Source: Armatimonadota bacterium
Lineage (GTDB): Bacteria > Armatimonadota > UBA5829 > DTJY01
NCBI GenBank assembly: GCA_025358205.1
Contig: JANYKG010000119.1
Span: forward strand, 14,233-78,232
Length of the DNA: 64,000 bases
Direction: 5' to 3'
Positions 361-34,547 of the stretch are shown piece after piece (within the stretch, counting starts at the first letter, position 1; every line of letters starts with the position of its first letter). The position numbers and the translations under genes are program-made. A model generated the notes under the pieces. That model was not told the DNA's origin. It made no database searches and saw only the letters and a list, made by a program, of their open reading frames with translations.

Positions 361-1126
361 TGTGAGACCCTCCTAGTGCGGTGACAGGACTATCAACTGG
401 GTGCTTCTACACGTGTTATTACCCGATCTATTGTCGGCCAGAAACGTGCGCGTCATTAGTCGCTGCAAACTCTCAGTGTAGGCTTTGCAGTAAGCGCGAC
501 CGGCCTTTGACTGGCGCCATGCGCACGGATAGTTCATAGATTCTACAGTACACTCGCTTTTCTGTCAATGCCGACGCAGAAAAACTGGTATTCACACCTG
601 CCGATTTACTATACATTCCGACAGGCGAAATCTCCTCCTATAGCTAATACGCGTGCTTGCCTATCATGGTTCCACTAGATAGGTGATGCTCAGCATCCGC
701 GACCTGGCACCAACTCCACCAGTGGCGATCTGCAGCGCCGTTTGACTGGAGATCCCCGCCGGCGATGATACGCCCTTGCTGGCAGTTCCGACCAGACAGA
801 TCCGCCCTGGCTGGCTTGACACAACAAAGAACAGGGGTTATACTTGGGCTTGGGAGTTATGCAGTCTGGAGATCGTGAGAGAGAGATTACGCCGAAGGCA
901 TAGAGTGTGTCAAGGCAGGAGTGATGCCGTAGACGCCCTTCTTGGGCCCAACGTGTATATCGTATTCCTCTTTCAGCATTCCCTCGTAGCCCCCTGGCGC
1001 TACCAGACAATGTAGACAAACCGATTTTGCGAGTGTGCATCAGAATCCGCACACTCCGCTGCTCCCGAACGGTCGCAACGTTGACCGGGGACGCTCGGGG
1101 GATATTTGTACCAACGAGAATTTCAT

Positions 1127-3564: not shown

Positions 3565-6195
3565 TTGCATGGGATTAGGACGATCAACCCGGCCTTGTCA
3601 ATAGGGCATCACAGAAGTACATCGGGACTGGGAGAGGGGGCATTTGTGAGGAAAACAGCTCTTATCACCCTTGCTGCAGGAGCCAGCTTGGCTGCGATGC
3701 TTATCATCTCAGCGGTTAACAAGCTGCAGGAAACCGCCGTGCAGCCGGATCCTTTCGCCGCAGTCGCGTGGCTTACGGCGGTCATGGCAATTGCCGTCGC
3801 CGTTGTCATGTTTGCCGAGTACTTCATCCACGGCAGGCAGGCGCACCTCTATCTGGGCAGTTCATTCCTTGCTGTCGGCGTGCTTGGCATTTGGGACGCT
3901 CTCACGTTCCCATACAAGGCAGCCTTCCAGGATGCAAGCCATTCTTGGTCCTATCTACTGATCTGGCAGCTCCAATGGCTTACTCTAGGACTGGGCCTGC
4001 TCTACGGCATGGTTCAGGGTAAGAAGTTCAACGCCAAAGATCAAGTCATCAGCCGATCTGCAGTCGCTGCGCTGATAGGCGTCCTGTACGCAGCGGCAGC
4101 CATTTTCGCCATTACCTCATTTGTCAGCCAGGATGCCGCTTCGGCGGACTGGGTTCCCAGCGCGGGGATGATAGTCAGCCTGGTATGCGTCGGCATATTT
4201 GCGGTTGCGCTTGTGGGATACGGGCGCGGGTCGGTCCACAGAAACAACGCCATCATAACCTGGATGGCTTACGGCCTCATCTTTGGCATGCTCGGCCAAC
4301 TCGCCATGGGACTGTCCAGCCAGCCGAGCGCCGCGCTCTTCTGGTTCGCGAACGTGATGAAGATCATCGTGTTCCTTATGCCGCTGCTGGGCATGCTCGC
4401 AGAACACACCCGCCTTCAGGTCCGGCTGCGCGACCAGGCCTATCACATCACCAACATGGTTCAGTCTCAGCAAGCCGTGACCTCGCTGGTAAATCCTGCT
4501 GACCTGTATGCACGTCTGGCCGAGATCGCTCGACAATCGTTCAGCGCCCGTGCGGCGTGCCTGCTTCAGTTTGAGAAAGACCGGGGCCTGCTCAGGGTCT
4601 CCGGCCACTCCGGGCTTGATGAGGATTCGGTTAAGCGACTGATTTTCCGTCCAGGCGAAGGCCCGGTCGGCGACGCGTTTTCGGACAAGCAGATAGTCGT
4701 CGTCCCGGACCTGCTTGAAGACAGGTCAATGGGTCAGCGGCTGGACGGCATGGGCGAGATCACCACCGGCGTGTTTGCGCCGCTTGTCACCAGGGACGAG
4801 AGCAAGGGCGTGCTCGCGCTCTTCTTCTCTGGTCGGCACACCCACAAGCTCGGCAAGGATCAGCTCAGGCTTCTGGACGTTATTGCGACTCAGGCGGCTA
4901 TGGCGGTGGAGGAGAACAACCTGCGCGATCGCATCTCGGACTCCTCGCGCACGTCCGGCGGATATGCCCAGGAACTGGAGATGGTGTGGGAGATCGGCAG
5001 GGCGGTCGGCTCCGAGTTGGACCTGCACACCCTGGTCGCCACGCTTTCGGACAAGCTTAAGGGTGCAGTTGCAGCCACCGAGTGTTCGGTGTTGCTGTTC
5101 GAGCCTGATCTGGTCGGCATGAAGATACTGGGCAACAAGAAGCTTACCCGCTACCACAGCGCCGCAGAGCACGTAGACCAGTGCGATGCGGTGGCCGTCA
5201 CGGTCGCGCGCCGGAACGAGGCCGTCATCGTAAATGATGTGCCGAACAGTTGCCACTGCAAGTTCCCGGAGTTGCAGTGCGAGGACGGCGGGGTTCACCA
5301 TCTGCTGTGCGTGCCCATGAACCTGCGCGGGTTCACGGGGGCCATCAGCGTCTTCCGGCGCAACGGCGATGCATTCGGCGAGGGCGAGAAGCGGCTGCTG
5401 ATGAGGTTGGCGCCGGTGGTTGCGGCGGGGCTTCGGAACGCCGAGCTTTACGAACGGGAAGCTTCCATCGCGCGAAACCTTGAGGAGAGCCTCAGGAGCC
5501 GAGTGGAGCAGGAGTTGACCGGCATCGCGGTCAGCGGCGCATATCAGGCAGCGTGGGATGAGTCGCTGGTCGGCGGCGATTTCTACGATGTGATTGACTT
5601 TGGAAACGGCAAGTACGGAGTGGCTATCGGCGACGTCTCGGGCAAGGGCGTGGAGGCTGCGGTGTACACCGGCATGACCAGGTACATGATTCAAGCCTAC
5701 TCCGCTGATGATATTGACCCGGTGTACGTGGCATCCAAGCTGAACGCAGCCCTTTGCCGCTACACGCCGATTGGGAAATTTGTCACTGTTGTCTACGGCG
5801 TGGTGGACACAGACGCAAAGACGCTCACCTACGTGAACGCGGGTCACGAGACGCCGTTCATCCACCGCAGGGAGACCGGCAAGCTGGATACCCTGGCATC
5901 AACCGGCCCGGCTGCGGGCGCGATTGAAGAAGGCCAGTACACATCTGAGACCGTAGACTTCGGTCACGGTGATACTCTTGTACTGTACACCGATGGGGCG
6001 ACCGAGGCACGGCATGACGGCAAGTTCCTGGGTACGGACGGACTGCAGAAGATGCTCATCGAGCTGGTTCCGAAGCATCCAGACGATCTGCCGGAAGCGC
6101 TGATTGCCGCTATTAAGGCCTACGCGAAGGGCCGCCTGCGCGACGACATTGCGGTGCTGACCGTGACCGCGAAGAAGCCCGGGGCGTTGTTCTAG
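3565..6195 (+). CDS. membrane-anchored GAF-domain PP2C-type serine phosphatase (RsbU/SpoIIE family)
   Basis: 876 aa. N-terminal multi-TM region, central GAF-like regions, and a C-terminal PPM/SpoIIE domain (GDFYDV...GDVSGKG...DGATEA). A GTG at 3646 preceded by a G-rich SD is an alternative start. Confidence 0.8.
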   Translation: MHGIRTINPALSIGHHRSTSGLGEGAFVRKTALITLAAGASLAAMLIISAVNKLQETAVQPDPFAAVAWLTAVMAIAVAVVMFAEYFIHGRQAHLYLGSSFLAVGVLGIWDALTFPYKAAFQDASHSWSYLLIWQLQWLTLGLGLLYGMVQGKKFNAKDQVISRSAVAALIGVLYAAAAIFAITSFVSQDAASADWVPSAGMIVSLVCVGIFAVALVGYGRGSVHRNNAIITWMAYGLIFGMLGQLAMGLSSQPSAALFWFANVMKIIVFLMPLLGMLAEHTRLQVRLRDQAYHITNMVQSQQAVTSLVNPADLYARLAEIARQSFSARAACLLQFEKDRGLLRVSGHSGLDEDSVKRLIFRPGEGPVGDAFSDKQIVVVPDLLEDRSMGQRLDGMGEITTGVFAPLVTRDESKGVLALFFSGRHTHKLGKDQLRLLDVIATQAAMAVEENNLRDRISDSSRTSGGYAQELEMVWEIGRAVGSELDLHTLVATLSDKLKGAVAATECSVLLFEPDLVGMKILGNKKLTRYHSAAEHVDQCDAVAVTVARRNEAVIVNDVPNSCHCKFPELQCEDGGVHHLLCVPMNLRGFTGAISVFRRNGDAFGEGEKRLLMRLAPVVAAGLRNAELYEREASIARNLEESLRSRVEQELTGIAVSGAYQAAWDESLVGGDFYDVIDFGNGKYGVAIGDVSGKGVEAAVYTGMTRYMIQAYSADDIDPVYVASKLNAALCRYTPIGKFVTVVYGVVDTDAKTLTYVNAGHETPFIHRRETGKLDTLASTGPAAGAIEEGQYTSETVDFGHGDTLVLYTDGATEARHDGKFLGTDGLQKMLIELVPKHPDDLPEALIAAIKAYAKGRLRDDIAVLTVTAKKPGALF

Positions 6196-6676: not shown

Positions 6677-8815
6677 TCAGATTTCGTAGCTGCCACCGGC
6701 CTGCACTCTCACCATCTGGGTGCCGCCATCCGCCATGCGTATGCGCAGCGCTCCTGCTGACCGCTCGGCGGGGCGAACCGTTATGCTCCACTTGTCGCCC
6801 GCCTTCGATACATCCAGCCTGAACCCTGCCCAGTGGAAGTTCGTCACCGGAGCCAGCGGGAGAGTGCCATCGAACGACATCATGTCCACGCCTCGGACGG
6901 TCAGCAGCATGCCCAGCGCCTCGCCTGCCCCAACGTTCGATGAGATCAGCGGGGTGGATACCATGCCCTGGTCCGCGCGCGCCGGATTGCCGGTTTCCAC
7001 GTTGATGCACTCCCAGACGCTCGGCCAGCGCAGGAGCATTCTGAGCGTGCTATCGAGGGCATCGTCCTGCAGGTCCGGGTAGTAGTTCCCAGCGCCGATG
7101 ACGCCCATTGCGCACGACTTCGGCCAGGCTGGTCCACGCCAGTAGTGGTTCGCTTCGTACTCGAACTCGCCGGGCGCGACCGTGTGGATGCCGTATTGCC
7201 CGATCAGCCGGCGGTAGTTTTCCTTAGCCGCCGCTGCCTTCTCCTCGTCCACCAGTCCGTATGCAAACGGGAACAGACCGTCCACGCCGACGCGAGTGTC
7301 CAGTGTGCCGTCCTCGTGCAGAACACCGTACCAGTTGCGCGCCGAATCCCAGAGAATCTCGTCCATCGCCTGTTGGGTCTTCTCTGCCTCCGCGAGCCAG
7401 CGCTCAGTCTCGCCGGTGTCTAGAATCTCGGACATGCGCGCGAGGGACTGCTCGTACCGGCACCGTTCGGCGGCATAGATCGCCGGATAGCAGTAGCTTT
7501 CCTTCACACCGTCCACCCCGTAGGTCACCTTTTCAAAGACCGGTGTGGTGTCCAGCCCGGTATCGAACGATGCGATAACGCCCCAGAGGTGGAGGTTGCG
7601 GAAACACTCATCGCGCGATTTGCAGAGGTAGTCGTAGAAGCGAACGAGCTTCGGGTACCAGGCTTTCAGGCACTCGTAGTCGCCGGTCACGTCCGCATAG
7701 CGCAGGCACACCCACGGGATGTGCGGCGTCTGCGTGATGTTCCGCCTGGACCACCCCGCCCCAAGCACCTCGTCGGAGAGATAGATAGCGTGCGTGATGA
7801 AGCCGTCTTCTCGCTGGTTGTCCATGAACAGGTTCAGCGCCTGACGGATGTGGACCGAAGTGTACTCCGTGTTCTGGTCGGAATGCCACTCAGAGGAGTC
7901 CAGTCCCCAGAGCCAATAGCCTCGGTAAACGGGCAGCGCCTCGCAGACCATATGGCCGAATCGCGGGCTGTCGTAGTAGTTCAGCTTCACGACCCACCAG
8001 CACTTGTAGTACGCCCGACGCTCATCCGGCGAGGCGAAGTCGGCGCTTGGGAGAGTGTGGAACCACGCGTCCCAGCGCTCGCGGATTGGCGTTTCCAGGT
8101 AGGATGTACCGCAGGCCGAACGCGCGGCACCTGGGTCGCCGAACGACAGGCCGATCGAGATCGTTCGTGGATCGTTCCTCTTAAGCGAGAGCTTGAACTC
8201 CAGCACGAGATAGCGGGTCCCGTCAGAGTGTCCAGCTAGGCCGCACGCCTTGATCGCGGCTTCGGCGTCATCCATGGAGTCGAAGGCCCCCCAGGAGTCC
8301 GCCTGCGCGCAGAGAGTGGCGCCGCCAAGGTCAAAGCGCCCTTCGCTTGCCTTCACCTCGCCCAGCCCGCCGGCCGCCCGGAGAGCGACGTAAAGGCTCT
8401 TCTCGCGCCCATGAATCCCCAGGTAGTCAACATCGAGTTGCCAAGTGAACGCGTTCTCCACCGCTCTGCCAAAGCTCTCGCGGATGCTGACGCCGGGTTC
8501 GGAGAAAGCCGCCGTGCGCCGGACGAGATCGGGATAGTATTCCCTCTCGTCCCAGACGAAGGTCGAGCGGGATAGCGGGGTAATGAATCCCGGTCCTGTC
8601 CACGGAGCGATGAACAACTCGAAGGAAGGCGCATCGTCGTAGCTGCTCGAAGTTCGGTCGTCGAAGCTCCAGCCGACTGTCCCGGTGTTCATCGGATAGG
8701 CGTACAGGATGGTGGAATCGCTCGGCTTCAGGGCGACTGCGGTTCTGCGCGGAAGAGAATCATCAAAAGTCTCTCCAAGTGATTCCCAGATGCTCGCGTT
8801 GGAATGTGTGTTCAT
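6677..8815 (-). CDS. (alpha/alpha)6-barrel glycoside hydrolase, GH63/GH37-like (possible mannosyl- or glucosylglycerate hydrolase)
   Basis: About 712 aa. The YWRGPAWP motif resembles the trehalase/GH63 signature. The ORF track start at 8863 overlaps glxK; the internal ATG at 8815 gives an ATGA-type overlap with the glxK stop. Confidence 0.55.
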   Translation of the reverse strand: MNTHSNASIWESLGETFDDSLPRRTAVALKPSDSTILYAYPMNTGTVGWSFDDRTSSSYDDAPSFELFIAPWTGPGFITPLSRSTFVWDEREYYPDLVRRTAAFSEPGVSIRESFGRAVENAFTWQLDVDYLGIHGREKSLYVALRAAGGLGEVKASEGRFDLGGATLCAQADSWGAFDSMDDAEAAIKACGLAGHSDGTRYLVLEFKLSLKRNDPRTISIGLSFGDPGAARSACGTSYLETPIRERWDAWFHTLPSADFASPDERRAYYKCWWVVKLNYYDSPRFGHMVCEALPVYRGYWLWGLDSSEWHSDQNTEYTSVHIRQALNLFMDNQREDGFITHAIYLSDEVLGAGWSRRNITQTPHIPWVCLRYADVTGDYECLKAWYPKLVRFYDYLCKSRDECFRNLHLWGVIASFDTGLDTTPVFEKVTYGVDGVKESYCYPAIYAAERCRYEQSLARMSEILDTGETERWLAEAEKTQQAMDEILWDSARNWYGVLHEDGTLDTRVGVDGLFPFAYGLVDEEKAAAAKENYRRLIGQYGIHTVAPGEFEYEANHYWRGPAWPKSCAMGVIGAGNYYPDLQDDALDSTLRMLLRWPSVWECINVETGNPARADQGMVSTPLISSNVGAGEALGMLLTVRGVDMMSFDGTLPLAPVTNFHWAGFRLDVSKAGDKWSITVRPAERSAGALRIRMADGGTQMVRVQAGGSYEI

Positions 8816-15486: not shown

Positions 15487-15745
15487 GACACAAACCGTCC
15501 ATTACCAAGAAGTCCTGAGCCTGGTCGAAGGGCGTATCGAGGGACCATCCAGGCTGTTGCCACAGTCTCTTCATCCCTGCGTCCGGGGAACGCAACCATA
15601 AAGGTTGCGGCTACAGGTTACTCGGGATTCGGAAATCCCGTGCCAACATTATCGTATGCTTCTCGGCGTTCCGTGCATGATCTCGGGGAAAGCCCGAAGC
15701 GCTGCACCAAGAAACCAATGCAGGAACACAACATTTGCATACATG

Positions 15746-29330: not shown

Positions 29331-29353
29331 AGAGAAGGTGACCTGAAATAGCA

Positions 29354-31249
29354 ATTCTGGAATCAATAACCAGTCCTGCTGATCTCAAGAAGCTCTCATC
29401 GGAGCAGTTGAGAGCGCTCGCGGTGGAAATTCGCGAGGAGGTCATTGAGCAGGTCTCCAAACTGGGAGGGCACCTCGCGTCGAACCTTGGCGTGGTGGAG
29501 CTAACGCTTGCCTTGTACACCGCCTATGACCTGCCTGCTGATACCGTCATCTGGGACGTCGGCCACCAGTGCTACACCCACAAGCTGCTCACCGGCAGAT
29601 ACGGCAGCTTCGATACGCTTCGGCAGTTCGGCGGGATCAGCGGGTTCCCCAAACGCGATGAAAACCCCTACGACCGCTTTGGCGCGGGCCATGCCAGCAC
29701 GTCCATATCGGCGGCGCTGGGTTTCGCAAAAGCTCGCGATCTGAAGGGCGGCTCGGAGCACGTGGTGGCGGTGATAGGTGACGGCGCACTTACCGGCGGC
29801 ATGGCATGGGAGGCGCTGAACAACGCCGGTCATCTGAGGACTAACCTCATGGTGGTGCTGAACGACAACGAGATGTCCATCTCAAAGAACGTCGGAGCCA
29901 TGAGCACCCACCTCAGCAAACTCCGCATGCAGCCGCTTTACAGGAAAGTTGAGCATAAAGCCAAGGATGTGATATCCAACCTGCCGATGGGCGAGGCTAT
30001 TTCACGAACCGCAGAGGGTCTGCTCCACGGCGTAACACACCTCATGGCCGCGCAGACCGGTATCATATTCGAGGAACTGGGCTTTAAGTATTTCGGACCG
30101 ATTGACGGCCACGACACGGACCTGCTGATCGAGGTGTTTCGGAATCTGCGGACTTTTGAAGGCCCGGTGCTGGTGCATGTGCTGACGAAAAAGGGCAAGG
30201 GCTACGAGCACGCGGAGAAGAATGCTCGGCTGTTCCACGGCGTATCGGCGTTCCAAGTGGAGAACGGCGCGGCGCGGAAGATATCCGGTGGCAAGAGCTT
30301 CACCGATGTCTTCTCGGAAGCCGTCATCGAGTTGGCCGAACAAGACGACCGCGTCGTAGCCATCACTGCGGCCATGCCCGACGGGACCGGTCTGCAGCGC
30401 TTTGCCGAGAAATTCCCGACCCGGTTCTTTGACGTCGGCATCGCGGAACAGCACGCGGTGACCTTTGCAGCGGGGCTGGCGGCCGGTGGATTGCGTCCGG
30501 TGTTTGCGGTCTACTCCACATTCCTGCAGCGCGCTTACGATCAGATTGTCCATGATGTCTGCCTCCAGAATCTGCCGATTGTTTTTGCTATAGACCGCGC
30601 GGGGCTGGTGGGCGATGACGGCCCTACTCACCACGGCGCTTTCGACCTCTCCTTCCTTCGGCACGTGCCGAACATGGTGGTTGCCGCCCCCTCCGACGCG
30701 CGCGAGCTTAAGGAAATGCTGGCGCTGGCGCTAACCCACGATGGCCCGTTCGCTATACGATACCCTCGCGGGTTGTGCCCAGACTCGACGACCGGCTCAG
30801 TTGCGCCCGTGGTAATCGGCAAGTCAGAGGTTCTTGTGGACGGCGACGATGTGTGTGTAATAGCGATCGGCTCGGCTGTGGGCATCGCGGTCGAGGCAGT
30901 GGATTTGCTGCGCGCACAGGGAATCTCCGCGGCGCTAATCAATGCGCGTTTCGTGAAACCGCTGGACGAGGAGACCATTCTCTTATACGCTAAGCGCACT
31001 AGGCGTGTAGTGGTGGTTGAGGAAAACTCCGTGCAGGGCGGATTCGGAAGCGCAGTGGCGGAGCTTCTGTCGGAAGAGCGTCTTTCCGACGTTGCGATCA
31101 GGCAGATCGGGCTGCCTGATGAGTTTGTGGGCCAGGGCGCTCAGATGCTCCTCCGCCAGTTCCACGGTCTCACCCCGGAACACATTGCGAGGACTGCTGC
31201 CGAGATGGTGGTGCAAGTTTCCTCACAAGGCGCAGGACGAGACGATTAG
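29354..31249 (+). CDS. dxs: 1-deoxy-D-xylulose-5-phosphate synthase
   Basis: [16 protein letters not shown]...[17 protein letters not shown] and TPP-binding GDG motifs. The conserved N-terminal block [14 protein letters not shown] lies upstream of the TTG at 29408. There is no ATG or GTG between the in-frame stop at 29339 and 29408, so the start was placed at ATT 29354; this is uncertain. Confidence 0.85.
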
Positions 31250-31460
31250 GGAGCCGTCTCAACCGCTCAACTTCCCTTCAGCTAGACCCAACTGCACACG
31301 GGATCTCATGTGATGAGACGATCATTTCGCACAAAACGGCCAGCCTGCTAAACGGGTCACCAACTTTCTTTGGCGAATTTTGTAGAAATGATCCGAATGG
31401 CACGATTCTTGCAGGTATTATTACCAGAAAGAAACATTCTTTCTCCTTCCATACCTTGAG

Positions 31461-31491
31461 CCCATTGCAACACGCAGTGGGCCATTTTTTT
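31461..31491 (+). terminator. intrinsic terminator-like hairpin (CCCATTGC-AACAC-GCAGTGGG) followed by a T7 run
   Basis: Read directly. Downstream of dxs (stop 31249). Confidence 0.5.
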
Positions 31492-31613
31492 GCGCTAGAC
31501 TGAAGGTGAAAACAAGTTTTTTCTCGCAATGCGCGGAAAAACGGGGCGAATGGCATGATTCTTGCAGGTATTATTACCAGAAAGAAACATTCTTTCTCCT
31601 TCCATACCTTGAG

Positions 31614-31644
31614 CCCGCTGCAACACGCAGTGGGCCATTTTTTT
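31614..31644 (+). terminator. second copy of the terminator-like hairpin plus T7
   Basis: Stem CCCGCTGC/GCAGTGGG with one mismatch, then TTTTTTT. Confidence 0.45.
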
Positions 31645-31685
31645 GGCAGGAAGGCTTGCTTCTGCGGTGCCACCTACGGGGTAAC

Positions 31686-32879
31686 TTAGTCGGAGAACCT
31701 GATCCTCAGATTGCCGTTTATCACTTTCAGCATGATATTGGCGCCTCCCGTCCCGAACTCCAGATGGATGTGCTCCTCGGACGGATGGTCGGACTGCACG
31801 CCGGTCAGGTTTTCGATGTGGCCGGAAGTTACGGAGGCGTCCACCAACGCGGACGAACTTCTGGGGAGCGAAAGAGTCAGGTCTTTTCCGGTAGTCTCTA
31901 CTGAGAGCGCCCCGCCTTTTGCCGACGAAAGGGTTACATTCACTTCTCCGTTCAGCGCCTTGACCGCATGCGTACCGGAGACCAGTGGCAATCCGTCAAT
32001 GGTCACAGGGGCGCCCGTGGAGACTACGCTCAGCTTTGCCGGGAGGGAGGTCGGATTTGAACTGAATGTGACCAGTAGCGATCCCTCGGTCGGTTCAAGC
32101 AATACCGGGACAGCGCACGGCAGCGATAGGTCTGCGACAGCCAGCTTCGGAGTGAGTGTTAACACCAGTCGGTCATCCACTCTCGTCAACTCCCCGGTGT
32201 CGTTTATGCCGTCCACCACGCTAAGTTTGGCGGTATTTCTGCCCACCAGCCGGGCGTTGATATCAGATCTGGTGGACTTGATGTCCAGCGATTGGGATGG
32301 CGGTACGGATATCGGCTGATCTGCAGGAATCCTCAGCGAACCGCTTGCTGCAGGAGTGGGCGCTTCCGGCGTCGCCCCCGCTACCACTCGCTGGAAGAGA
32401 CCTGGCAGCCTGACCGCAGGGTTAGACATTTTGGCTGGATCCAGCGCGCCGAAAATGCGCACAATGGTAGCCTGGCGATTAGCCTTACCGGGCGGATCGA
32501 TCTGAATGATCAGCATACCGTTCTTCTCGTTATATAGTATAGCCGCTCCGCTCTTGTCCTCAAGACTACGAACGACAGTTTTCCAGCTTTGCGCGGCTAT
32601 GTATTTGTCGTAGAAGCCGAGTATGTCGGCGGAGCTTGTCTTCGTATCTATGGAATACATGTTTGCACTGATCTGCTTCAGATCAGCGATGCCAAGCCAT
32701 TGTCCGTATTCGTGAGCCAGCGTGTCGAGTATGGCTCCCTCCGGCAGGTTGATCTCAGTGACAAGTTTGGATTCGAGCGGTACGGGGACGTCCATCTGCA
32801 GAAGCTCAGCCGCTCCGCACGCGCACGCAAGCAACGCAACAACAATGCACGCCAAGATAACGCCAATGCTTACCTTCAT
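31686..32879 (-). CDS. secreted DUF4097-like (putative adhesin / beta-helix) protein of the ECF module
   Basis: Signal peptide. The C-terminal repetitive beta-strand region is typical of YvlB/DUF4097 proteins found downstream of sigma/anti-sigma pairs. Confidence 0.5.
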   Translation of the reverse strand: MKVSIGVILACIVVALLACACGAAELLQMDVPVPLESKLVTEINLPEGAILDTLAHEYGQWLGIADLKQISANMYSIDTKTSSADILGFYDKYIAAQSWKTVVRSLEDKSGAAILYNEKNGMLIIQIDPPGKANRQATIVRIFGALDPAKMSNPAVRLPGLFQRVVAGATPEAPTPAASGSLRIPADQPISVPPSQSLDIKSTRSDINARLVGRNTAKLSVVDGINDTGELTRVDDRLVLTLTPKLAVADLSLPCAVPVLLEPTEGSLLVTFSSNPTSLPAKLSVVSTGAPVTIDGLPLVSGTHAVKALNGEVNVTLSSAKGGALSVETTGKDLTLSLPRSSSALVDASVTSGHIENLTGVQSDHPSEEHIHLEFGTGGANIMLKVINGNLRIRFSD

Positions 32880-33655
32880 GGTTGATTCACTCCATTCACG
32901 TCCGTGTCTGTTCCGGCAGGCAGCGGCGGCTTTGATGTCAGCAGATCAACCGCCTCCTGCAGTTTGCCTCGAAGCTTCTCCACATTCTCGTTCATGGCCA
33001 GTCCGGCCTCACCGATGTTGTCCTTCACGCGCTCTTCGCTGCCGATTGCGGAGTCCATCGTTCCGGGTATGCTCGCAGGTGGCGCTGCGATAGTCAACTC
33101 ACCAACGCCAGGAACAACCGGCGTCTTGGTGGGGGCCGGAGCGGGTTTCATCGCTACCATTGAGGTATGCTTGTGTACCCGCCTGATGTGCCGCACAACG
33201 GGTTGCACGTCAGCGTTGGCTACAATCTTCGGCTCCACAACCGGTTGAACCTGCTTCACGGGTTGCGTCACTTTGGCCGTGATCGGGGCTTGCAGAGGGA
33301 CGCTCTCCGGGACTCGACCCTGATTGACTATCAGCATAACCGCCACCACGGCAACAGCCGCCATACCGGTGAGCGCGGTGCCAAAGTATCCAGATCTCTT
33401 GCGCACCGGTCGGCCCACTTGAGGGCTGCTCGCGACCAGATCCTGCAGTTTGTACGCGAACCTCTGTGCCAGCAGTTCGGACGGCTCTTCGTCGCCCCAA
33501 GCTGCCATAACGCCTCTCAGCGATGACACGGAGGCTTTCTCCTTCGCGCATGCCTCGCACTTGCCGAGGTGCAGTGTCAGAGCCAGTTCCTCGCGCGGCG
33601 TCAGTTCGCCGTCGAGTTCTGCGGATATCAAGATTTTCGCTTTGTTACATTTCAT
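32876..33655 (-). CDS. zf-HC2 anti-sigma factor, single TM
   Basis: N-terminus MKCNKAKILISAELDGEL...HLGKCEACAKE is the zf-HC2 motif. One TM helix. Its 4-nt overlap is with the start of the downstream DUF4097 gene (31686-32879); a 36-nt gap separates it from the upstream sigma factor gene. Confidence 0.7.
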   Translation of the reverse strand: MKCNKAKILISAELDGELTPREELALTLHLGKCEACAKEKASVSSLRGVMAAWGDEEPSELLAQRFAYKLQDLVASSPQVGRPVRKRSGYFGTALTGMAAVAVVAVMLIVNQGRVPESVPLQAPITAKVTQPVKQVQPVVEPKIVANADVQPVVRHIRRVHKHTSMVAMKPAPAPTKTPVVPGVGELTIAAPPASIPGTMDSAIGSEERVKDNIGEAGLAMNENVEKLRGKLQEAVDLLTSKPPLPAGTDTDVNGVNQP

Positions 33656-33691
33656 GGTCTTACCGCCTAAATCACGTACCGGCCGTTCATT

Positions 33692-34288
33692 CTACGGGGC
33701 CAGGTACTTCAGTCTTTCTCTCAGTTTCTGTCTGGCCCGAAATATCAACACCTTCACGCTGCCTATCGGGCAGCCCAGCGTTTCTGCAATCTCTTTGTAT
33801 TCCATCCCCTGATACTCTCGCAGCATTATGGCCGTGCGCTCCTTGTCCGGGAGCGACTTGATGGCCACCTGCAGTTCCTCGCGCAACTCCATGCGCAGAA
33901 GATGCTCCTCCACCGGCGATTCCAGTGAAGCGGGCGGCAGTTCCACCTGATCTTCTTCAGAGAAGGTTTCCGCCATATCCGCTACGGGCATCTCAGGCCT
34001 GCGAGCTGCGTGCCTCAGATGATCCCTGCACTGGTTCCCGGCCACCGAGTACAGCCAGGTTGTGAACTTCGCGTTCGACCCGTTGAACGTGTGCCCGAAC
34101 CTGCACAGCTTGATGAACGTCTCCTGCACCAGGTCTTCTGCGATCTCACGGCGTCCCACCATGCGATAGAAGAAGTTGAAGAGCGGCTTCTGGAACCGGC
34201 CAAAAAGCTCTTCCATGGCGCCGGTATCACCGGCTTGGAATCGCGTCATCAGCTCTTCGTCTGTCTCGCGTATGGTATTCGACGCCAT
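33692..34288 (-). CDS. ECF RNA polymerase sigma factor
   Basis: Region 2 (LVQETFIKLCRF...TWLYSVAGNQCRDHLR) and region 4 (LREYQGMEYKEIAETLGCPIGSVKVLIFRARQKLRE). The start is one of the clustered Met codons at 34288-34297. Confidence 0.8.
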   Translation of the reverse strand: MASNTIRETDEELMTRFQAGDTGAMEELFGRFQKPLFNFFYRMVGRREIAEDLVQETFIKLCRFGHTFNGSNAKFTTWLYSVAGNQCRDHLRHAARRPEMPVADMAETFSEEDQVELPPASLESPVEEHLLRMELREELQVAIKSLPDKERTAIMLREYQGMEYKEIAETLGCPIGSVKVLIFRARQKLRERLKYLAP

Positions 34289-34547
34289 TTGCATCATAGG
34301 TGTATACGTCCGAGTGTGTCGAAAGTTAACAAGATCAGGCACAAATACAGGCTTATTCCCACGTTTCTTTGTGCTAGCAGTTGTCTGATAAAGTCCATTG
34401 GGACGATCGCGCAGGACTTTTGGCGTCAGGCTAGGCGAGACGCGCAGGCCATATACGCACAGATATGGACAAGCGGCTCAACAACGCATGGCGCCAAAAG
34501 GACAATCGAGCACCCGAGACGACTTTATCCGGCGGCTGCTAGACCGC

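Follow-up and report, generated by a model that had tools for sequence, protein, structure and literature searches.

The stretch of DNA analyzed here (64 kb, referred to as the window) contains a tandemly duplicated element between two convergent transcription units, dxs and an operon encoding an ECF sigma factor, an anti-sigma factor and a DUF4097 protein (Table 1). A direct-repeat search identified a single repeat family, with two copies of 99 nt that are 97% identical and start 153 nt apart. A first-pass annotation had described the same duplication with nearly the same dimensions (98 bp, about 96% identity and a 55-bp spacer), and the lower GC content that it reported is also borne out, at 0.43-0.45 across the element versus about 0.6 in the flanking genes. 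The copies differ at three positions, one C/T (31403/31556) and two adjacent ones, AT/GC (31464-65/31617-18). A 38-nt core of the unit has exactly two occurrences in the window, versus 0.00 expected from 100 shuffles. Logan contig L001, from another read set, carries a neighboring gene identical to that in the window. Mapped onto the window, it ends within the second copy, roughly 30 nt in from the last copy-specific base, which we read as a k-mer-sized break at a true repeat. A further 3.6 kb of DNA beyond the window start contained nothing relevant.

Table 1. Duplicated element and neighboring features, in window coordinates.
Feature	Coordinates	Strand	Basis or remark
dxs, upstream neighbor (context only)	29408..31249	+	Pfam DXP_synthase_N, Transket_pyr, Transketolase_C
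Palindrome ATCTCA-TGTGA-TGAGAC, speculative candidate enhancer (activator-binding site)	31303..31319	.	95 nt upstream of promoter 1
Unit 1, predicted complete sRNA gene (promoter to terminator)	31394..31492	+	Direct repeat; homologous units at the same site in L193, L083, L082 and L197
Sigma-54-type promoter of unit 1, TGGCACGATTCTTGCA	31398..31413	+	-24 GG at 31399-31400, -12 GC at 31411-31412
Predicted sRNA 1, about 68 nt	31424..31491	+	5' end predicted from sigma-54 geometry, 12 nt (+/-2) downstream of the -12 GC
5' hairpin of unit 1, AGAAAGAA-ACA-UUCUUUCU	31426..31444	+	In MFE and centroid structures; sequesters the 5' half of the CU box
CU box UUCUUUCUCCUUCC and single-stranded tail AUACCUUGA, putative anti-Shine-Dalgarno seed	31437..31459	+	Conservation, 41 units
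Intrinsic terminator of unit 1	31460..31491	+	9-pair stem, 5-nt loop, CA, U7
Unique spacer between units	31493..31546	+	54 nt; unlike the sequence upstream of unit 1
Unit 2, predicted complete sRNA gene	31547..31645	+	Direct repeat; covariance model R1 score 93.0 bits
Sigma-54-type promoter of unit 2, TGGCATGATTCTTGCA	31551..31566	+	One C-to-T change in the -24 element
Predicted sRNA 2, about 68 nt	31577..31644	+	5' hairpin 31579-31597, CU box 31590-31603
Intrinsic terminator of unit 2	31613..31644	+	Terminator scan; stem stays paired despite two differences from unit 1
ECF sigma / zf-HC2 anti-sigma / DUF4097 operon, convergent neighbor	31686..34342	-	Pfam

Each copy starts with a perfect or near-perfect sigma-54-type promoter, TGGCAC/TGATTCTTGCA, which the first-pass annotation overlooked. 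The sole exact match to TGGCAC-N5-TTGC in the window is the head of copy 1. The TGGCAT variant seen in unit 2 is also found in other members of the family described below (5 of 106 distinct promoters). Each copy ends with a hairpin and a T-run, as had been recognized earlier. A terminator scan placed the stems at 31460-31482 and 31613-31635, with 5-nt loops followed by CATTTTTTT. Previously given as 8 bp, these stems have 9 pairs when G-U is counted. Their starts are 211 and 364 nt downstream of the dxs stop (31249), close to the distances first reported. The AT/GC differences between the copies fall in the terminator stem and preserve its pairing (A-U to G-U, U-G to C-G). Since the duplicated unit spans exactly promoter to terminator, the copies appear to be complete genes and not just hairpins downstream of dxs. 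This agrees with the earlier view of each copy as a likely plus-strand small RNA gene with its own terminator.

The predicted RNAs fold with -23.2 kcal/mol (31425-31492) and -25.1 kcal/mol (31578-31645), in both cases with z = -5.8 against shuffles. Their CU box is complementary to the Shine-Dalgarno-like sequence GGAAGGAG. In most family members the box is an approximately 19-nt perfect complement of an idealized Shine-Dalgarno-spacer-AUG, and many carry (AAC)n-like ACAACAACA directly 5' of it. Read by eye, the predicted plus-strand transcript in the window contains neither an ATG nor a Shine-Dalgarno sequence. A GGTA-N4-TACC palindrome between -10 and +2 was considered as an RNA helix. Its position upstream of the predicted start and its no more than moderate conservation speak against this.

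Relatives were sought independently of these motifs, through homologues of the neighboring DUF4097 protein. One such locus, L083, has the same dxs, array and DUF4097 synteny as the window, with four units and one divergent sigma-54 unit; another, L082, has at least four units, and two more (L085 and L086) end inside a unit. The DUF4097 homologue is the immediate downstream neighbor of the array in the window and in 9 further loci, down to 40% amino acid identity, and additional contigs with this homologue break off within the array or at its edge. In metagenomes, a DNA-pattern scan recovered at least 120 stretches. One of them, L193, retains the full gene order of ispE, NTP-transferase, dxs, three units, DUF4097, anti-sigma and ECF sigma. 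The syntenic relatives carry 3-5 units at the site where the window has two. The first-pass annotation had named absence or lack of conservation in relatives as an outcome that would speak for a neutral duplication; in fact, relatives retain the element at the same site, and its conservation reaches far beyond that site.

A covariance model, R1, was built from 41 units. Loci L082-L181 gave 114 matching units (E <= 1e-3) and loci L182-L206 a further 31 (E <= 0.01), so that the matches listed comprise at least about 145 units on about 100 environmental contigs. Unit 1 scored 94.3 bits (E 2e-20), as a training sequence of the model. R1 gave no match in about 0.64 Mb of control sequence, made up of 75 dxs loci from other taxa. 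The units are intergenic and occur in every orientation to the neighboring genes, but on one strand only within each array, which fits independent genes. Copy number per array ranges from 1 to at least 5. In the second-largest array, L200, the dxs gene is not clearly from Armatimonadota. A search of genome contigs with the DUF4097 protein gave no match. The corresponding dxs search identified Armatimonadota and Chthonomonadales MAGs as the nearest species representatives, with only 55-59% identity, which makes the phylum assignment of the window weak, and the element is absent downstream of dxs in all of them. The units had no match among plasmids. The single match on a viral contig has no terminator and looks like a chance hit.

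Conservation within the family is concentrated in the promoter and the CU box. Identity to relatives is 94-100% in the promoter, 81-95% in the CU box and 51-78% in the terminator. The promoter columns are invariant across the 41 aligned units, and the GG-to-GC separation is exactly 10 nt in all of them. The box core TTTCTCCTT is likewise invariant, and the adjoining columns are at least 90% conserved. The helix equivalent to the 5' hairpin is 88% paired in the 41 units, with one covarying pair only, since the invariant CU box forms its 3' arm. The terminator varies in sequence and maintains its structure. Across the family 93.5% of its cells are paired, and compensatory changes are seen in 7 of the 8 pairs. 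Its covariation score and paired fraction were reached by none of 500 column shuffles, and shifted registers of the helix are only 56-61% paired. On the other strand many of its G-U pairs would become A-C mismatches, a sign that the plus strand is the one transcribed.

The pattern scan demanded both a promoter and a CU box, and co-occurrence of the two in the loci it recovered is therefore partly circular. Three observations mitigate this. The protein-anchored loci were obtained without the motifs. Complete units with a CU box and terminator that lack the strict promoter pattern all keep a GG-N10-GC promoter with one mismatch. Lastly, positions left free in the search pattern follow the extended sigma-54 consensus, given as YTGGCACG-N4-TTGCW (PMC3352281). 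Among 106 distinct promoters, T or C precedes TGGCAC in 96, A or G follows TGGCACG in 100, and A or T follows TTGC in 97, which fits YTGGCACGr-N3-TTGCW. The window promoters themselves deviate slightly, with A in place of Y before TGGCAC in both copies and one further mismatch in unit 2.

Upstream of the array, conservation between the preceding gene and the first promoter is confined to one island, the palindrome ATCTCA-N5-TGAGA (window, L193, L083, L197 and L094). It is a single site, located 73-95 nt upstream of the first promoter in five loci. In L091, L097 and L165 it lies about 1 kb from the promoter.

Several other readings of the element were considered. The first-pass annotation had also proposed that minus-strand micro-ORFs of 26 and 31 amino acids are translated from a strong Shine-Dalgarno sequence, GGAAGGAG-N5-ATG, so that the element would encode small peptides. 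The strings with GGAAGGAGAAAGAATG and both ORFs (31357-31437 and 31495-31590) do exist. However, the supposedly perfect Shine-Dalgarno sequence is the reverse complement of the conserved CU-rich box of the RNA, and the micro-ORF is not conserved. A start codon 3-12 nt after AAGGAG is missing in 13 of the 41 aligned units, including most units of the closest relatives (L193, L197, L082 and L083). The other units give ORFs of 1 to 64 amino acids, and across these the conserved promoter DNA is read through in three different frames (CKNRA, LQDSCQ and ARFVPI). Three frames and variable lengths indicate conservation at the DNA or RNA level rather than the peptide level. In addition, the minus strand has no terminator, and the G-U pairs of the hairpin fit the plus strand only. 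We find this peptide reading hardly credible. The 131-aa ORF at 31278-31673 spans both copies and has no Pfam match, in keeping with its earlier dismissal as a read-through artefact. It is very unlikely, too, that the hairpins are merely dxs terminators or 3' UTR, with a recent neutral duplication and a coincidental promoter-like string. A scan found no other dxs terminator before 31460, and read-through from dxs could also add to RNA 1; the 97% copy identity could suggest a recent event. Yet identity begins 4 nt before the -24 element and stops just after the U-run, with unrelated spacers, and conservation is highest in the promoter. Even relatives with a DUF4097 protein only about 54% identical have kept arrays of 2-5 units at this site, and the same units adjoin unrelated genes in all orientations. 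Gene conversion between paralogues fits the copy identity better, and L082 has a similarly near-identical pair.

A dispersed mobile repeat of the REP or MITE type would also be short, structured and intergenic, as the units are. Against it, R1 with filters off finds only the two copies within 64 kb, inverted repeats were undetected in 1.4 kb around the element, plasmids and viral contigs offer nothing beyond the chance-like hit mentioned above, and the syntenic position is conserved. The probability of this reading is close to negligible. Another possibility is that the RNA genes use a promoter of a different kind, for example a sigma-70-like TTGCAG-N17/18-nAACAT, and that TGGCACG-N4-TTGC is the operator of some other protein. 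TTGCAG resembles a -35 element, and many members have TAACAT 17-18 nt downstream. An RpoN box, GAFTGA and an activator Walker A motif are absent from the window and from every family locus fetched, and Pfam analysis of 16 window proteins revealed neither rpoN nor a sigma-54 activator. But the closest relatives lack the AACAT hexamer (AAACTCTC, GATACTCTC) and keep TGGCACG-N4-TTGC intact, a scan of 30800-32200 detected no sigma-70-like promoter, and both the fixed GG/GC spacing and the free positions agree with sigma-54. A non-sigma-54 promoter is thus highly improbable.

The units matched no described family in our searches. As the first-pass annotation had suggested, we compared them with Rfam. 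At gathering thresholds, the window and 20 family loci yielded two tRNAs only, and Rfam 15 holds no family matching the units. A permissive scan of 31200-31750 (E up to 10) gave only sub-threshold matches at chance level and no Qrr. The best was mmgR/suhB (RF00519, clan CL00108), at 22.2 and 20.3 bits versus a gathering score of 41. mmgR is an alphaproteobacterial RNA. It shares with the units the layout of a 5' stem, a single-stranded U/C-rich UCCUCC-like stretch and a terminator, but its first stem is unmatched in the alignment. We found no description of the units in the literature, including under the motifs TGGCACG and CUCCUUCC, or in a term search of Weinberg et al. (2010). Nor did we find any regulatory RNA described for Armatimonadota-like bacteria.

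The organization of the units is similar to that of the Vibrio Qrr RNAs. A genome encodes several paralogous Qrr1-5 genes of about 100 nt, and each of them forms a single transcription unit that runs from a consensus sigma-54 promoter (the YTGGCACG-N4-TTGCW sequence above) to a stem-loop terminator of its own. Their seed is highly conserved, whereas the rest of the RNA is variable, and the copies have redundant or additive effects (PMC3352281). The paralogous units here also each have a sigma-54-type promoter, a terminator and a conserved putative seed. Unlike the units, qrr genes are dispersed, and there is no sequence or covariance-model similarity between them. The Qrr activator LuxO binds boxes of the form TTGCA-N3-TGCAA, whereas no LuxO box or activator was identified here, and the seed of the units is an anti-Shine-Dalgarno CU box. 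The CcsR or 'cuckoo' RNAs and AbcR1/2 are comparable as tandem short sRNA genes with a terminator for each repeat. CcsR contains a CU-rich anti-Shine-Dalgarno motif, CCUCCUCCC. The promoters of CcsR and AbcR are of the RpoH or sigma-70 type, not sigma-54. Their motifs lie in hairpin loops, and they differ from the units, which have no Rfam match. CcsR and AbcR1/2 belong to Alphaproteobacteria, and PMC3712013 describes the latter as encoded in tandem. Among sigma-54-driven RNAs, none of those compared (Pxr, CrcZ/CrcY, NrsZ, GlmY/GlmZ) is known to be related to the units in sequence or structure or to have this CU box. Sigma-54 promoters with dedicated activators are known for Pxr in myxobacteria, CrcZ/CrcY and NrsZ in Pseudomonas, and GlmY/GlmZ in enterobacteria, and some of them, such as the pxr duplicates and crcZ-crcY, are tandem paralogues. 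CrcZ and GlmY work by sequestering proteins and carry several motifs per RNA, compared with one motif here.

We propose that the copies are probably tandem paralogous, sigma-54-dependent, trans-acting sRNAs of about 68 nt with a Qrr-like organization and an anti-Shine-Dalgarno seed. Sigma-54 RNA polymerase would bind the -24/-12 promoter of each unit (TGGCAC/T-GATTC-TTGCA) and wait there until an ATP-dependent activator fires transcription. A possible binding site for the activator is the conserved palindrome, which lies some 110 nt upstream from where the first unit would start. Transcription is expected to start about 12 nt past the -12 GC and stop at the unit's own hairpin and U7. The resulting RNA would comprise a weak 5' hairpin, the conserved pyrimidine box (UUCUUUCUCCUUCC...) and the terminator hairpin. 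Because the box is complementary to the Shine-Dalgarno sequence, the RNA most likely acts by pairing with ribosome-binding sites of mRNAs encoded elsewhere. In most members the pairing could extend to the following spacer and AUG. Such pairing would block translation. The tandem copies, two here and 3-5 in relatives, would provide dosage and redundancy, like the Vibrio Qrr RNAs.

A lone conserved motif in a single-stranded region would also fit binding of a protein rather than base pairing. The sRNA might titrate an RNA-binding protein through its CU-rich or A-rich 5' region, as a sponge in the manner of CsrB/RsmZ or CrcZ or by titration of Hfq. Tandem multi-copy genes sharing one invariant single-stranded motif would suit a sponge, as would the (AAC)n-like sequence 5' of the box, and CrcZ and CrcY are known precedents of sigma-54-driven protein sponges. 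The searches for mRNA targets also leave room for it. Duplex scans of the window identified no convincing site, pairing with the start regions of dxs and of genes in the ECF operon no credible one, and sense matches to the box complement no credible target in 0.8 Mb of loci. These searches, however, covered only a small fraction of any one genome. Furthermore, known sponges have several motifs per RNA and the units have one, and the approximately 19-nt complement of an idealized Shine-Dalgarno-spacer-AUG looks like a pairing seed. We therefore regard titration of a protein as rather unlikely.

A broader and speculative extension, to which we give little weight, is that the base-pairing sRNAs form a deep-branching, possibly multi-phylum Qrr-like regulon. 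A dedicated sigma-54 activator would fire arrays of anti-Shine-Dalgarno sRNAs as a dose-dependent translation brake on many mRNAs, coupled functionally to the ECF-sigma/anti-sigma/DUF4097 envelope-signaling operon, which the arrays face in lineages with as little as 40% protein identity. One possible form of this coupling is read-through from the convergent operon, which would yield an antisense sponge for the sRNAs.

The units make up a family of predicted RNAs that Rfam lacks and that recurs, often as tandem arrays, on at least about 100 environmental contigs. In practice, neither the 131-aa ORF nor the micro-ORFs of this locus should be annotated as genes. The family is compact and easily recognized, with a defined promoter, putative seed and terminator and a conserved genomic address. 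Its at least about 145 members are enough for a covariance-model seed and comparative target prediction. It would add an independent case of redundant sigma-54-driven sRNAs, a design known mainly from the Vibrio Qrr RNAs, and would point to a novel activator and signal in uncultured lineages. The Qrr-like regulon, if real, would give Armatimonadota-like bacteria their first defined regulatory-RNA circuit.

The two copies of the element downstream of dxs are 97% identical and have a spacing of 153 nt. The 54-nt spacer between them is unrelated in a repeat search. A 38-nt core of the unit occurs exactly twice in the 64-kb window, against 0.00 expected, and GC content drops to about 0.43 over the element. 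At the 3' end of each copy, a terminator scan found a GC-rich stem of 9 pairs, capped by a 5-nt loop; CA and seven T come after it. The copies differ at three positions, two of them within this stem, where both copies keep the pairing. The first-pass annotation had described a low-GC tandem duplication (98 bp, about 96% identity, 55-bp spacer) with a hairpin and T7 terminator in each copy; this holds with small corrections, the stem having nine pairs and not eight. The repeat extends from 4 nt before a -24 promoter element to just beyond the terminator, and each copy is therefore a complete transcription unit. Gene conversion between paralogues best explains why the copies are nearly identical while the spacers beside them are unrelated. 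A similar near-identical pair is found in L082, one of the fetched relative loci (handles beginning with L).

Coordinates of features in the window and, where a locus is named, in relative loci
Feature	Location	Strand	Remark
Intergenic region	dxs stop 31249 (+) to stop of convergent 397-aa gene 31686 (-)		one direct-repeat family inside
Copy 1	31394-31492	+	direct repeat, 99 nt
Copy 2	31547-31645	+	direct repeat, 99 nt
ATCTCA-N5-TGAGA(C/A) palindrome	31303-31319		conserved stem sequence, variable centre (alignment A2)
GGTA-N4-TACC palindrome	31414-31427		often CAGGTA-N4-TACCTG
Near-match to sigma-54 core	15631-15645	-	TGGCACGGGATTTCC; mismatch in -12 element
ECF-sigma / zf-HC2 anti-sigma / DUF4097 operon	31686-34342	-	array faces its 3' end
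Seemingly non-canonical dxs start	29339-29408		
Seemingly non-canonical dxs start, L083	~6690-6740	-	
Seemingly non-canonical dxs start, L193	~7725-7775	-	
Different-body unit, L083	~4540-4700	-	
Different-body unit, L197	~504-610	-	
Different-body unit, L164	936-1034		
Different-body unit, L097	2090-2195		

Each copy starts with TGGCAC(T)GATTCTTGCA, a feature absent from the first-pass annotation. The sigma-54 promoter consensus quoted for qrr genes is YTGGCACG-N4-TTGCW (PMC3352281). Copy 1 matches it exactly except for A at the Y position, and copy 2 has one further mismatch. Copy 1 is the single exact match to TGGCAC-N5-TTGC in the whole window, and only two sites match with one mismatch: copy 2 and a poor site at 15631. 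The latter, the sole other near-match, is probably due to chance, since 5.3 one-mismatch matches are expected. A GGTA-N4-TACC palindrome of moderate conservation across the family lies between the -12 element and the inferred start site, at equivalent positions in many units. Neither rpoN nor a sigma-54 activator gene is found in the window or in any fetched locus.

Relatives were collected without using the motif, through 16 homologues (40-78% identity) of the DUF4097 protein encoded next to the array; contigs were fetched for several of these. All units in these loci keep the promoter and a pyrimidine-rich box, CUCUUUCUCCUUCC, and their terminator stem sequences differ. The dxs, array and DUF4097 layout recurs in L083, whose DUF4097 is 54% and whose dxs is 82% identical. 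Its 1.28-kb intergenic region holds four units and a fifth, also with a sigma-54 promoter, whose RNA body differs. L193, a locus from the pattern scan described below, repeats the gene order of the window: ispE, NTP-transferase, dxs, three units, DUF4097, anti-sigma and ECF sigma. Conservation in relatives, which the first-pass annotation had proposed to check, thus extends from the same site in L083 and L193 to well beyond. A JGI metagenome scan with the pattern TGGCAYG-N4-TTGC-N18-42-TTTCTCCTTC returned at least 120 stretches; among the matches listed, most are clear homologues of the units, frequently grouped in arrays of 2-4. We aligned 41 short-form units (A1) and built a covariance model, R1. 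With filters off, R1 found only the two copies in the window. It found 114 units at E <= 1e-3 in L082-L181, 31 at E <= 0.01 in L182-L206, and none in 75 control dxs loci of other taxa (~0.64 Mb).

Promoter geometry, counted from the GC of the -12 element, predicts transcription starts near 31424 and 31577 and RNAs of about 68 nt. The predicted RNA consists of a 5' hairpin, AGAAAGAA-ACA-UUCUUUCU, a single-stranded CCUUCCAUACCUUGA and the terminator, with a fold energy of z = -5.8 against shuffles. Folding of whole units also favours the plus strand, with z = -4.3 and -5.1 compared with -2.6 and -3.4 for the minus strand. In A1, 93.5% of terminator-helix cells are paired, and both partners have changed in 7 of 8 pairs. 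Neither the observed covariation score nor the paired fraction was reached in any of 500 column shuffles, and registers shifted by 1-3 columns pair at just 56-61%. Many pairs are G-U, which would be A-C mismatches on the opposite strand, indicating that the RNA is read from the promoter-bearing strand. The 5' hairpin shows 88% pairing, but as the invariant box forms its 3' arm, covariation neither supports nor rejects it. With copy 1 as the reference, the promoters of relatives are 94-100% identical, their boxes 81-95% and their terminators 51-78%, a mosaic typical of sRNA genes.

Several alternatives were considered. The first-pass annotation had left open a small peptide, and the SD-like string and ORFs of 26 and 31 aa do exist on the minus strand. 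What looks like a perfect SD with an ATG is the conserved box in reverse complement. A start codon 3-12 nt after AAGGAG is missing in 13 of 41 units, including most units of the closest relatives; the other units have ORFs of 1-64 aa, which read the conserved promoter in three different frames. Peptide coding is rejected; the other suggestion of the first-pass annotation, small RNA genes with their own terminators, is supported. Read by eye, the predicted plus-strand transcript contains no ATG or SD, and the 131-aa ORF across both copies has no Pfam match. A sigma-70 promoter, with TTGCAG as -35 and TAACAT as -10, is a weaker reading: the TAACAT hexamer is absent from the nearest relatives, though they keep the -24 and -12 elements, and a sigma-70 promoter scan of the element region gave no match. 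The sigma-54 reading is partly circular, as the metagenome pattern demanded this promoter. Three lines of support do not depend on the pattern. The first is the DUF4097-anchored units. Second, at positions left free by the pattern, 106 distinct promoters fit the extended consensus: TGGCAC is preceded by T or C in 96, TGGCACG is followed by a purine in 100, and TTGC by A or T in 97. Third, complete units failing the strict pattern still have a GG-N10-GC promoter with one mismatch. The copies are very probably independent sRNA genes with a sigma-54-type promoter. Since dxs has no terminator of its own, read-through could be a second route to RNA 1.

Units are intergenic; all orientations towards the flanking genes occur, and the units of any one array share a strand. 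The position of the window's array is conserved. Directly downstream of the array, the window and 9 further loci carry a DUF4097 homologue, with identities as low as 40%, and in these lineages the array faces the 3' end of the ECF-sigma / zf-HC2 anti-sigma / DUF4097 operon. Because the terminator of the last sRNA lacks a U-run on the opposite strand, read-through from the operon would be antisense to the sRNAs. In five loci (the window, L193, L083, L197 and L094), the ATCTCA palindrome is the sole conserved island ahead of the first promoter, 73-95 nt upstream of it; the upstream gene in L094 is not dxs. It may be an enhancer or other protein-binding site, a speculative reading because in L091, L097 and L165 its distance is ~1 kb, with an asparaginase-like gene in between.

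L082 carries at least four units before its contig end, and L085, L086 and the Logan contig L001 (SRR23617163) end inside a unit, as expected of short-read assemblies at repeats. Short-read contigs of the lineage (these four) thus end in sRNA units; the arrays break assemblies, and copy numbers in MAGs are probably underestimated. Longer subtypes share the promoter and box and have extra conserved sequence such as AAAGUGUUGUGG. Long-form members (L089, L109, L137, L145, L157, L186, L190 and L200) have a further hairpin and a further conserved stretch, AAAGUGUUGUGGC.... Eight loci have long forms 114-259 nt upstream of a pfkA-like gene, on its strand, where they might act in cis. In the arrays of relatives there are, in addition, units that share the sigma-54 promoter and have a terminator but differ in RNA body, with an absent or degenerate CU box. 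They suggest a second sRNA type under the same control; the window has none.

Among GTDB species representatives, the nearest dxs genes are in an Armatimonadota MAG (59%) and Chthonomonadales MAGs (55-57%), and the element is absent downstream of dxs in all of these. The phylum assignment of the window is therefore tentative. Its first 13 kb are also present in the NCBI MAG GCA_043723985.1. A plasmid search gave no match, and viral contigs gave only one, judged chance. The start codon of dxs seems to be non-canonical: the frame is open from the first canonical start (TTG, 29408) upstream as far as a stop at 29339-41. This stretch encodes the conserved Dxs N-terminus (16 residues) without ATG, GTG or TTG. 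An AGGTGA SD lies 6-7 nt before ATA (window, L193) or ATC (L083), and by Pfam the listed ORF is ~18 N-terminal positions short.

The first-pass annotation had proposed a covariance search of Rfam. With Rfam 15, no unit in the window or in 20 family loci matched a family at gathering thresholds; the best permissive match was mmgR/suhB (22 bits, threshold 41), which has only the layout of stem, CU stretch and terminator in common with the units. The units resemble Qrr in their sigma-54 promoter, several paralogues and own terminators, and share with CcsR and AbcR a tandem arrangement and an anti-SD motif, but belong to none of these. No description of the family was found in literature searches or in a term search of Weinberg et al. 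2010.

Most likely, the two copies encode sigma-54-dependent sRNAs that act in trans and have a CU box that would pair with ribosome-binding sites of mRNAs. The box is complementary to GGAAGGAG, and in most family members complementarity extends over ~19 nt of an idealised SD-spacer-AUG, GGAAGGAGAAAAAGAUGUU. No target site was found in the window and fetched loci, which amount to little DNA. We give this anti-SD pairing mode even odds; the RNA could conceivably act as a protein sponge instead. Overall, the units probably represent a real, conserved sRNA gene family of known kind, apparently undescribed. Having several copies would serve dosage and redundancy, as it does for Qrr (PMC3352281).
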